Shown piece by piece: positions 16,433 to 18,672 of a stretch of 51,879 nt of DNA (position 1 is its first letter; each line of letters opens with the position of its first letter). Both the position numbers and the translations under genes were made by a program. This DNA comes from a virus: UHGV virus genome UHGV-0213324; one strand, written 5' to 3'. The notes below the pieces were generated by a model. The model was given only the letters and a program-made list of their open reading frames with translations, made no database searches and was not told the origin of the DNA.

Positions 16433-16449
16433 TTGTTAGGAGGAAATTT

Positions 16450-16608
16450 ATGAATAAACGATTTATAAAGAGTGTGAAACGCCCGGCAGGGTTGAACACA
16501 CACACACACACACACACACACACGCTACAGCGTGTATTTATATTATTAAGAGGTACTTGCAAAAGTGCCTTTTTATTTTTAACAAGATTGGTGGTGACAA
16601 GCATTTAG
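16450..16608 (+). CDS. Leader ORF 1 containing a slippage-prone (AC)14 tract
   Basis: AGGAGG at 16438-43, ATG 16450; MNKRFIKSVKRPAGLNTHTHTHTHTLQRV...TSI, TAG at 16606-08. Confidence 0.75.
   Translation: MNKRFIKSVKRPAGLNTHTHTHTHTLQRVFILLRGTCKSAFLFLTRLVVTSI
16496..16523. repeat. (AC)14 dinucleotide microsatellite
   Basis: Read directly from the sequence. Confidence 0.98.
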
Positions 16609-16626
16609 ACTTGTCACGTGATAATT

Positions 16627-17031
16627 ATGCTTGTTGATGCAAATGGCAAAAGCCTAGTAGACCACATCTACCCAATTGGAAGTGTATATATTTCATTTAA
16701 CAGTACTGATCCAAAAGCACTTTTTGGCGGTACCTGGGAAAGAATAAAAGGATATACACCAGCTGGTATCAATGAGGAAGATGATGATACAAACACAAAA
16801 ACTAGTTTTAACCAAAGTGCAGGTAAAACAATTGGTAGTAAGTGGTTGCAAAAGCACCAACATATGTATTGGAACAGTGACGGACGTAGAAATAATGGTG
16901 CGGGTACAGATTGGAACTATCAGGGGGTAGATGTTTCAAAGTTTAGTAATGGAACTGGTTATACTGGTGATGGTGATGCACAAAATATACAACCTACGAT
17001 ATTAGTATATATGTGGAAAAGAACAGCATAA
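16627..17031 (+). CDS. Alternative tail-tip/receptor-binding module 1 (gp53-like/collar-type domain)
   Basis: YPIGSVYIS...DPKALFGGTWERI...NIQPTILVYMWKRTA; N-terminal MLVDANGKSL. Confidence 0.75.
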   Translation: MLVDANGKSLVDHIYPIGSVYISFNSTDPKALFGGTWERIKGYTPAGINEEDDDTNTKTSFNQSAGKTIGSKWLQKHQHMYWNSDGRRNNGAGTDWNYQGVDVSKFSNGTGYTGDGDAQNIQPTILVYMWKRTA

Positions 17032-17054
17032 TTAAAAACAGTCTAAATGCCTTT

Positions 17055-17408
17055 ATGGGCAAACTTAAAGATTCGAGTGGTAAAAAAATTTTGTTGGGAA
17101 CTGTTTTATTTGACGGTGATACAACAAGCAGTTTTACTTTAAAAGATGATTACACCAATTATGATTATCTAGAGGTTATATGGCGTCCGCATTCTACTTT
17201 GGGGCAGTGTTCGGATATGATGATTCCATCTAAAGACAGTAAGATGCATTTGGAACGTGCGCAGGCTATAAATGGTGTTACTACTGTTTATCGGTGTCAG
17301 TTGGCTTTTAGTGGAAAAAATGTATCACTTTCTGGCCGTACTCAGGTTATTAATGGAAATGCAGTTGATGCAGTAGAAGAACATATTTTGAGAGTAATCG
17401 GATATTAA
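17055..17408 (+). CDS. Alternative tail-tip/receptor-binding module 2
   Basis: MGKLKDSSGKKIL; TVLFDG...TLKDDYTNYDYLEV...ILRVIGY fibre-tip pattern; no local SD. Confidence 0.7.
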   Translation: MGKLKDSSGKKILLGTVLFDGDTTSSFTLKDDYTNYDYLEVIWRPHSTLGQCSDMMIPSKDSKMHLERAQAINGVTTVYRCQLAFSGKNVSLSGRTQVINGNAVDAVEEHILRVIGY

Positions 17409-17460
17409 TAACAAGGCACTTAAAAGTACCTCTCCAAGAAAAGAAAGAGAGGTAAAAAGT

Positions 17461-17505
17461 ATGATTAATTCAATGAAATTTGCGGGGGGGGGTACTATTT
17501 ACTAA
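17461..17505 (+). CDS. Leader ORF 2 containing a G9 homopolymer
   Basis: GAGAGG at 17447-52, ATG 17461; MINSMKFAGGGTIY then TAA at 17503-05 in the current phase. Confidence 0.7.
   Translation: MINSMKFAGGGTIY
17484..17492. repeat. G9 homopolymer
   Basis: Read directly; strongly unexpected in an AT-rich genome. Confidence 0.98.
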
Positions 17506-17595
17506 CAAGAAAAATAGTATCCTGTCTTCGGATTATATCTCTAAAAAGGGAGGTGCAGCATAACAGCTGTATCTTTATGATTAGAGGTGCAGATC

Positions 17596-17961
17596 ATGTC
17601 TAACTTTGTTAATAAAGATGGAAATATTATATTAAATTTAAATTACAGCAGTGAAGAAAGTTTTACCGGTATGTACTGGATAGACGGGAAGAAAATTTAT
17701 AGAAAATATATTAATTTTAATATATCTTCATCGTCTTATGATTATACACATAATCTAAACGTTGCCGAGTATGTAAAATTTGATTTAAAGTGCACTTTTA
17801 GCGATGGTACGATTGTTTCACTGCCTTATGTATTTTTTGAATCAGAAAACAAGTGGACCAACTGTCTTTTAATTACATCATTAAAGGCAAATTATATAAG
17901 ATTTTATAATGCGTGGGCTACAGGCCGTATTTACGGTATTATCGAATACACTAAGAATTAA
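17596..17961 (+). CDS. Alternative tail-tip/receptor-binding module 3
   Basis: MSNFVNKDGNIIL; YSSEESFTGMYWIDGKKIYRK...IEYTK, a common fibre C-terminal domain. Confidence 0.75.
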   Translation: MSNFVNKDGNIILNLNYSSEESFTGMYWIDGKKIYRKYINFNISSSSYDYTHNLNVAEYVKFDLKCTFSDGTIVSLPYVFFESENKWTNCLLITSLKANYIRFYNAWATGRIYGIIEYTKN

Positions 17962-17998
17962 ATTTAATTAGCATGATCAAAAAGCTGTTTGCTTGGTT

Positions 17999-18307
17999 AT
18001 GGGCAAATTTAAAAATCAAAACGGCGAAGTAATATTAAATCTAGATAATTATATTATCGGTCAAGCAAATCTAACATTCGAAAGTTCTGATACATTAACT
18101 AGAGTTGTTGGCTTTAGTAAAGAAGTTGAACAAGTTATTTTTAGTATTGTTGGGAACGCTTCTAATCCTCGAGATCAGGTGTATAGGGCTTATGCACAGA
18201 TTGGGTGGAATGACAGCAAAAAGAATGTAAACTTTATTGTAAAAGGAGGTGGATTTGTAAACGGACATATTTTACCGATTAATTATTTAGTAAAATTGAA
18301 AGACTAG
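17999..18307 (+). CDS. Alternative tail-tip/receptor-binding module 4
   Basis: MGKFKNQNGEVILNL; beta-rich; no local SD. Confidence 0.65.
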   Translation: MGKFKNQNGEVILNLDNYIIGQANLTFESSDTLTRVVGFSKEVEQVIFSIVGNASNPRDQVYRAYAQIGWNDSKKNVNFIVKGGGFVNGHILPINYLVKLKD

Positions 18308-18333
18308 GATATTTTGTTAGAAATAGTAAATTT

Positions 18334-18636
18334 ATGGCAAGATTCTTAAATTCTAAAGGAGATGCAGTATTTAATTTCATTAGGGACAGTAAAGTAATTA
18401 ATATAAATTATTCTAATCGTGGAACACTTTTTACTTTAGCAGAGTTAAAAACGTTGTTTAATTTTACAGCGATCGATCCAACGAAACTGATATGTGTTGT
18501 TTCTAATGGTGATGGCAGTGCAACAGACACACCTGTGATTGGTACGGTATGGCACGATAACGCGCTTAAAGTTAATTTAGGAGCAACGTATACTGGCAGT
18601 ATAAGAATAAACTACATACTGTTCCTTAACCCCTAG
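18334..18636 (+). CDS. Alternative tail-tip/receptor-binding module 5
   Basis: MARFLNSKGDAVF; VVSNGDGSA...GSIRINY; no local SD. Confidence 0.65.
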   Translation: MARFLNSKGDAVFNFIRDSKVININYSNRGTLFTLAELKTLFNFTAIDPTKLICVVSNGDGSATDTPVIGTVWHDNALKVNLGATYTGSIRINYILFLNP

Positions 18637-18652
18637 TAAATTAAAAATTATT

Positions 18653-18672
18653 AAAGGCCGAAAGGCCTTTTT
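18653..18672 (+). terminator. Intrinsic terminator closing the receptor-binding cassette
   Basis: AAAGGCC-GAAA-GGCCTTT then TT. Confidence 0.75.

Follow-up and report, generated by a model that had tools for sequence, protein, structure and literature searches.

A nested pair of slippage-prone leaders predicted to choose among five candidate tail-tip genes of an apparently temperate siphophage

Heritable choices among receptor-binding ends are made by tail-fibre shufflons and invertons, which use an invertase, and by diversity-generating retroelements, which use a reverse transcriptase. In leader-peptide attenuators, the position of a ribosome on a short leader picks between alternative RNA structures. 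In phage contingency loci, among them poly-G tracts in receptor-binding genes of Fletchervirus, homopolymers cause a frameshift in the affected gene itself (bioRxiv 10.1101/2025.10.21.683753). The split sites of T4 genes 38 and 25 each involve one gene, in which a local hairpin shortens a spacing of 22-27 nucleotides (nt) between the Shine-Dalgarno sequence (SD) and the start codon (PMC3014915, available portion). Of two described modes of translational coupling, termination-reinitiation (TeRe) requires that stop and start overlap or lie less than ~20 nt apart, and coupling through the unfolding of long-range structure (UTNI) involves an inhibitory long-range helix and a downstream gene with its own initiation region (accessible sections of PMC6728339 and PMC10666635). 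Here we analyze a 2.2-kilobase (kb) cassette of the virus genome UHGV-0213324, whose 51,879 bases we call the window. In this cassette, five small genes, which we call cargo genes, follow two leader open reading frames (ORFs), and each leader contains a repeat tract.

The first-pass annotation of the window had proposed that the length of each repeat sets the stop codon at which its leader ends, and that this stop, through long-range RNA pairing, selects one of the five genes for translation. A recheck of the sequence located both tracts, all six stops and the four complementary segments where that annotation had put them (Table 1). The (AC)14 tract is the sole AC tract of at least five units in the 51,879 bases, and G9 is the sole run of at least seven G or C. 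The tracts sit in separate leader ORFs, and all five cargo genes are intact. Leader 1 ends at stop a (TAA 16547) with 12 or 15 AC units, at stop b (TAG 16606) with 11, 14 or 17, and at stop c (TGA 16635), which overlaps the ORF at 16627, with 13 or 16. Leader 2 ends at TAA 17503 with G9, at TAA 17561 with G8 or G11, and at TAA 17601, which overlaps the ORF at 17596, with G7 or G10. The segments at stops a and b, S1a and S1b, are complementary to the anti-SD region of leader 2 and to the region before gene 2, respectively, and those at TAA 17503 and TAA 17561, S2a and S2b, to the regions before genes 5 and 4. We consider it very probable that the frame set by the repeats decides which cargo gene gets translated.

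Ribosome-binding potential differs among the genes of the cassette. With energies computed against an assumed anti-SD motif, genes 2, 4 and 5 lack an SD (+0.8, -0.3 and -0.1 kcal/mol, versus a median of -6.9 for 58 ORFs, 17 of which likewise score above -4). Strong SD-like motifs instead precede the stops addressed to these genes (-10.6, -15.2 and -11.6), and the motif for gene 5 is the G tract itself. Among four five-gene orthologs, the energy before the 12 addressed stops ranges from -9.4 to -15.6 kcal/mol (-10 or lower in 11 of them), a level reached by 1.1% of 1,316 background stop triplets. The spacing between SD core and stop is 7-11 nt in all 12 addresses, and that of ordinary starts with a core is 4-11 nt in 27 of 28. 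The address helix sets in 0-7 nt past the SD core. Because the helix begins just after the SD and ends just before the distal ATG, its geometry would bring the two together at the base of the helix. The sequence thus suggests that genes 2, 4 and 5 use split ribosome-binding sites and that the other two genes are held by self-locks. The native SD of gene 1 is weak (-4.3), and the start of this gene can pair with its own end (lock 1) in nine of nine loci, with its own partner the best in eight. An equivalent lock 3 (17592-17603 with 17968-17978) pairs in four of four. Genes 1 and 3 would be locked in this way.

We evaluated the long-range complementarity against 500 dinucleotide shuffles of each target. 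Three pairings stand out: S1a with the anti-SD (-30.4 kcal/mol, z -7.6), S2a with the region before 18334 (-26.2 kcal/mol, z -7.3) and S1b with the region before 17055 (-16.1 kcal/mol, z -4.2). The pairing of S2b with the region before 17999 (-14.2 kcal/mol, z -1.0, p 0.18) is not significant with wide windows. In narrowed windows, which were picked after the pairing had been seen, S1b and S2a outrank all 1,789 22-mers of the window, and S2b is in the top 0.34% of them (0.34-0.61% across four orthologs). Among the four window targets tested, the best partner of each segment is its proposed target, and the coordinates of all long-range helices are nested.

These helices also hold their positions in orthologs. 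The S1b helix ends 4 nt before the ATG in four of four orthologs despite differing targets; the search pattern held its leader side constant, so only the target side was free to vary, and the four targets differ in sequence and all pair. The S2a helix ends 5-6 nt before the ATG in four of four, and the S2b helix 2-6 nt before it (2 nt in L099 and L105). Among the diverged five-gene orthologs L099, L105 and L143, S2a has changed on both sides. Between the window and L099 or L105, cognate S2a pairs reach -26 to -27 kcal/mol and swapped pairs -19 to -20, a preference of 6-7 for the own partner; the L143 leader side prefers the window’s target over its own. S2b has undergone a two-sided change in L143; both there and in the window it pairs best with its own partner, with no such preference in L099 or L105. 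The distal complement of S1a is kept in five of five orthologs (-23.6 to -30.4). The paired segments are therefore conserved, and partly so through compensatory changes.

Relatives of the cassette provide natural experiments. We examined 38 loci, 34 of which have leader 1 plus a tract. The loci are mutually related, leader motifs served to retrieve part of them, and two or more entries (at least the pair L047/L104) look like a single contig filed twice, so the counts given here do not represent independent events. Seven of 18 matches were left out of the counts, namely five chance (AC)5 matches and two repeats of L001/L002, and L039 was listed and gave no row. Tract lengths range from 8 to 24 AC units and from 8 to 11 G, and the AC tract occupies all three frames. 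Leader 1 ends at one of the three sites in 31 of the 34 loci (a in 5, b in 11, c in 15); two others have no start in the contig, and the last, L088, is off the pattern. In some relatives gene 1 is replaced by unrelated domains, with the overlapping stop and lock 1 retained, and the overlap of stop and start is kept when the cargo start changes. The three-stop layout is thus maintained while cargo genes are swapped, except in L088. In assembled contigs from sequencing runs, which break at the AC tract and lose rare variants, G8, G9 and G10 were each found in different runs, and these contigs revealed no tract variation inside a single sample. Contigs from RNA libraries span parts of the cassette and may derive from DNA.

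Leader 2 is readable in 24 loci. A pure tract of 8-11 G occurs in 13, all of which carry gene 4. G9 is the commonest length in these five-gene loci (8 of 13), to which L143 adds G9 in an equivalent frame; in only one of the 13 is leader 1 set so as to open leader 2. The other 11 loci have an interrupted tract that is always 10 nt long, in four patterns, and wherever there is enough sequence (10 of 11) genes 4 and 5 are gone and the frame stops on gene 3. The loss of genes 4 and 5 hence coincides with a tract frozen in the gene-3 frame. The unused S2a address has decayed in 6 of the 11 interrupted-tract loci versus 0 of 10 close five-gene relatives. Among the matches listed, 12 of 26 gene-2 loci have gene 2 alone behind a plain SD, with no repeat. 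In L088, a cargo gene occupies the slot of leader 2. A locus near an S1b hairpin in L098 is a chimera, in which a G-tract leader-2 start is joined to an S1b address with two genes after it; its slot-3 target has decayed. Taken together, tract variation, layout, tract freezing and helix conservation support the first-pass interpretation of selection by repeat length, leader stop and RNA pairing.

Folding was modeled at equilibrium on naked RNA, with a full-length fold of 1.9 kb; sub-region folds are more favorable and biased towards long-range pairs. In the full-length fold at rest, the addressed sites are hidden in local hairpins (P ~0.96-1.0) with the stop in the loop. When the SD side is held unpaired, the S1b helix rises from 1.4 to 13 base pairs (bp) and the S2a helix from 0 to 28 bp.

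We propose the following mechanism. The lengths of the two repeats set where each of the nested leader ORFs ends, and the site at which the ribosome stops likely selects one of the five tip genes. In the resting mRNA, the SDs of the leaders would lie in local hairpins, with that of leader 2 paired to its anti-SD and the start of gene 1 paired to that gene’s end. A ribosome terminating in a hairpin loop would have just passed an orphan SD, now at a distance suited to initiation, and would hold that SD. The freed address could then pair with its distal target, looping out ~0.4-0.8 kb and placing the distal AUG ~6-10 nt from the SD, where the small subunit would reinitiate (genes 2, 4 and 5). A stop that overlaps gene 1 or 3 would melt the lock and allow local reinitiation, and after a stop just before S1a, this segment would displace the anti-SD and pass the choice to leader 2. 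Polymerase slippage would reset the state heritably; the current (AC)14 state predicts gene 2. From sequence and folding models together, we find it fairly probable that hand-over at split sites is gated by termination and gives near-exclusive output. We lean only slightly towards the fullest form of the proposal, namely a protein-free nested base-3 dial that hands over through a kilobase-scale RNA helix to one SD-less gene, gives strictly one-of-N interchangeable receptor-binding tips, is widespread in gut Bacillota phages and is undescribed.

It is important to emphasize that several observations weigh against this proposal. Reinitiation is nearly abolished by a distance of ~20 nt (PMC10666635, accessible text), and the distances from leader stop to start are 449 nt for gene 2, 438 nt for gene 4 and 831 nt for gene 5. 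Because published reinitiation fades by ~20 nt, the hand-over would rest wholly on the helix. Constrained full-length folding switches only two of the four helices: holding the SD side does not flip S2b, and holding the leader-1 side does not form the S1a:anti-SD pairing, which appears only once the SD of leader 2 is held. In sub-region folds S2a is already formed in the window, and S1b in L099, with no constraint. S2b is weak against shuffles across orthologs (p 0.03-0.18), and S1a does not favor its own partner over others. Only 5 of 31 loci are in frame a, fewer than in b or c; each of the five leads to gene 3, and none of the sampled genomes is set to gene 4 or 5. L088 (2250-3700, minus strand) keeps all helices, yet two of its frames stop early (-19 and +1) and genes 1 and 3 are frameshifted, which reflects either decay or homopolymer assembly errors. 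The composition of the locus sample, motif-derived and related with a likely duplicate, counts on the same side.

An unlikely but credible alternative retains the same selection and differs in the ribosome used: termination would just open the hairpin, the long-range helix would form, and a new 30S subunit would initiate de novo at the split site, in a UTNI-like manner. T4 genes 38 and 25 initiate in this way across an SD-AUG hairpin (PMC3014915, in the part available), and de novo entry is simplest for the S1a step, since leader 2 has its own SD. However, it would not need the initiation-like distance between stop and orphan SD that is conserved in all 12 addresses, and a freed hairpin should quickly refold (P ~0.98). 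It is also unlikely that the tracts merely bias ratios, with read-through ribosomes opening hairpins and split sites leaking, so that particles would be mixed with one tip dominant. Frames b and c do traverse upstream addresses, S2a and S1b form without constraint in some sub-region folds, and the native SD of gene 1 is weak. Yet the self-locks of genes 1 and 3, which covary, and the starts that lack an SD suggest that selection acts to keep unchosen genes silent, and single-gene relatives exist.

The remaining explanations concern processes other than translational selection. S1a scores as terminator-like, with a hairpin and a T-run, and could act as an intrinsic terminator by which frame a turns the cassette off, leader 2 being reached otherwise. 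The rarity of frame a and the failure of S1a:anti-SD pairing to form from the leader-1 side agree with this idea, which we nevertheless find very improbable: the distal complement of S1a is kept in all five orthologs, in three-gene relatives leader 2 persists, frozen in a frame that is productive, and the leader-2 slot of L088 is occupied by a cargo gene, arrangements that are sensible only if slot 3 can be reached. The inverted matches might instead be DNA sites for shufflon-like inversion or deletion, e.g., by the serine recombinase encoded at 22970-24502, given that inverted repeats flank gene groups and that cargo genes are swapped and lost among relatives. This is a remote prospect, as none of 64 S1b-hairpin loci (duplicates included) has a cargo-like ORF on the opposite strand, contigs from four sequencing runs lack strand-change joints, and the matches are all different, bulged sequences that change by G-U-type substitutions, with no repeated common site. 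That the matches arose by chance in AT-rich DNA around neutral microsatellites is barely credible. The 2.4-kb region does contain 68 inverted repeat pairs, and S2b alone is not significant against shuffles, but three helices have z-scores of -4 to -7.6, and fixed geometry, compensation and tract freezing all argue against chance. We rejected attenuation, DNA inversion and pure chance as the main mechanism.

Similar layouts occur in phages of unrelated sequence. We analyzed 14 of 42 generic SD-ATG-(AC)n loci. In five phages (L109, L118, L121, L138 and L015) the leader stops all lie behind a strong SD, the distal genes are SD-less, and about half of the addresses have a clear partner. L118 is ambiguous, one of two stops lacks a clear partner in each of L109 and L121, and one address is clear in L015. 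Four of these (L109, L118, L121 and L138; ~3000-4300, leader strand) are three-gene versions whose cargo N-termini are alike within each phage. In L015 (6340-8299), (ATCA)13 and (AC)9 stand in series in one leader, with five distinct SD-preceded stops and at least three small genes that share an N-terminus. Seven loci (L107, L112, L116, L117, L130, L131 and L137) have nothing beyond a frame that ends at a start, a distal address not being clear in any of them, and no downstream gene was obtained for comparison in L122, L124 and L126. Short (AC)n leaders in which one frame reaches a downstream start, or nearly so, while its two alternatives end early are found in L115, L117, L129, L132, L137 and L142, which are likely on/off versions. 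In L134 and L140, (AC)n-type tracts precede non-tail genes that, by eye, resemble DNA methyltransferases.

The cargo proteins are candidate tail tips. Genes 1 and 2 are assigned by homology or fold, gene 3 is a lead, and genes 4 and 5 are placed by position and by a short N-terminal motif common to all five proteins. The model of the gene 2 product (predicted local distance difference test score 91) matches in Foldseek phi812 baseplate chains and the C-terminal domains of phage K gp144 (E 3e-5 to 9e-4), a protein that we take to be receptor-binding; the gene-2 domain also terminates longer proteins. For gene 3, there is an Atlas lead: 40% of the members belong to Gp53-like_C tail-fibre clusters. 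Neither gene 4 nor gene 5 matches a Pfam or PHROG family. Upstream, a C-terminal motif A-V-[FY]-Y has invariant A, V and Y in 15 otherwise divergent C-termini that were chosen by that motif; a fibre C-terminus search returned near-identical proteins only. The common N-terminal motif of the cargo and the common C-terminal motif upstream suggest that tips dock interchangeably on the fibre’s A-V-[FY]-Y end. Two tail proteins of the window (12812-13321 and 15467-16432) share a terminal A-V-F-Y, which suggests that fibres may be chains of several polypeptides. The selected tip probably sets which host surface the phage binds.

The window is apparently a whole temperate siphophage, with terminase, minor capsid, tape measure, Dit, holin, amidase, serine recombinase and repressor-like genes, and the cassette lies between tail-fibre-like genes and the holin gene. 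A 94% identical copy of gene 4 carries the label Thomasclavelia ramosa (Coprobacillaceae), and a diverged version of the cassette is present in a Coprobacillaceae chromosome. Neither the nearest genome, G001, nor a search of 50,697 GenBank phages gave a match. A promoter scan was at chance level (10 versus 10.9), and no Rfam model matched, apart from a sub-threshold snoRNA match (E 0.58). Elsewhere in the phage, a Panacea/SocA-like antitoxin adjoins a PemK-like toxin between the lysis genes and the recombinase (21901-22868), and a 4Fe-4S ferredoxin (21298-21474) and an SPFH/Band 7 protein (37099-38007) are encoded.

Table 1. Features of the cassette and its borders in the window (all on the + strand; aa, amino acids)
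Feature	Position	Strand	Details
Upstream tail-fibre-like gene	15467-16432	+	PHROG minor tail/tail fibre matches
Leader 1	16438-16608	+	SD 16438-16443, ATG 16450; current-frame ORF ends at TAG 16606
(AC)14 slippage tract	16496-16523	+	8-24 units among relatives
Stop a (TAA 16547) and segment S1a	16547-16577	+	local hairpin with T-run; alternative partner 17407-17433
Orphan SD, hairpin and stop b	16590-16617	+	SD core 16590-16594; hairpin 16594-16617 with TAG 16606 in loop; address (S1b) 16601-16611
Gene 1 start with stop c (TGA 16635)	16622-16637	+	5' arm of lock 1
Cargo gene 1, 134 aa	16627-17031	+	Gp10_C domain, Pfam PF21939, E 3.5e-17
Lock 1 3' arm and S1b target	17025-17050	+	lock arm 17025-17034; S1b target 17040-17050, 4 nt before ATG 17055
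Cargo gene 2, 117 aa	17055-17408	+	no SD; predicted output of current state
S1a target, anti-SD and leader 2 SD	17407-17454	+	anti-SD 17427-17434 paired with SD 17447-17454 in predicted ground state
Leader 2, current-frame ORF	17461-17505	+	ATG 17461, stop TAA 17503
G9 slippage tract	17484-17492	+	doubles as SD-like motif 10 nt before stop 17503
Address S2a	17493-17528	+	local hairpin with TAA 17503 in loop; partner ~18300-18328
Orphan SD and address S2b	17549-17575	+	SD core 17549-17553; hairpin with TAA 17561 in loop; address 17557-17568
Cargo gene 3, 121 aa	17596-17961	+	own SD; overlapped by stop TAA 17601
S2b target	17983-17993	+	5 nt before ATG 17999
Cargo gene 4, 102 aa	17999-18307	+	no SD
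S2a target	18300-18328	+	5 nt before ATG 18334
Cargo gene 5, 100 aa	18334-18636	+	no SD
Terminator-like hairpin separating cassette from holin gene	18653-18678	+	follows cargo gene 5

If the proposed mechanism is correct, phages can switch host range in a further way that, in addition to invertases, retroelements and on/off frameshifts, requires no enzyme of its own. The rules of bacterial initiation would be extended as well, in that termination would gate a single site whose SD and AUG are separated by as much as 0.8 kb. With its 2.2 kb, the cassette could find use as a compact multiplexer, and since sharp predictions follow for each of nine tract states, the mechanism is directly testable. 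Annotation pipelines miss such a cassette because the leaders are short and control is at the RNA level.

A literature search, mostly outside subscription journals and in main texts without supplements, found no description of this system. Phage contingency loci, with the Fletchervirus poly-G tracts among them, likewise depend on slippage-prone repeats and reversible phage frameshifts, and the preprint on them does not use the words 'leader', 'dinucleotide' and 'translational coupling' (bioRxiv 10.1101/2025.10.21.683753). Unlike in contingency loci, the tracts here lie in leader ORFs, there is predicted output in all three frames, and the cargo stays intact. At the split sites of T4 genes 38 and 25, a helix likewise brings the SD close enough to the AUG to work with it (PMC3014915, available portion), and the geometry here fits such an arrangement. 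Unlike in T4, 0.4-0.8 kb with whole genes would be looped out, the SD is predicted to be hidden in the resting state, and the site is apparently gated by a stop; the T4 hairpin is constitutive, whereas in the resting full-length fold local hairpins outcompete the long-range arms here. TeRe, as described in the available parts of PMC6728339 and PMC10666635, fits genes 1 and 3 only, where the stops at 16635 and 17601 overlap the starts with an SD upstream; genes 2, 4 and 5 are far beyond its range. UTNI would fit locks 1 and 3 and leader 2, but not genes 2, 4 and 5, which have no SD and for which the helix appears to activate. Unlike with shufflons and retroelements, no inversion was seen here in 64 loci and four runs, and nothing in the control DNA varies but the length of the repeats. 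In contrast to attenuators, the input would be heritable repeat length rather than amino-acid supply or a drug, and the output gene choice rather than on/off. The parts are known: judged by its sequence, the cassette would work like contingency loci, split sites and translational coupling together, yet it misses a defining feature of each and would be new as a system.

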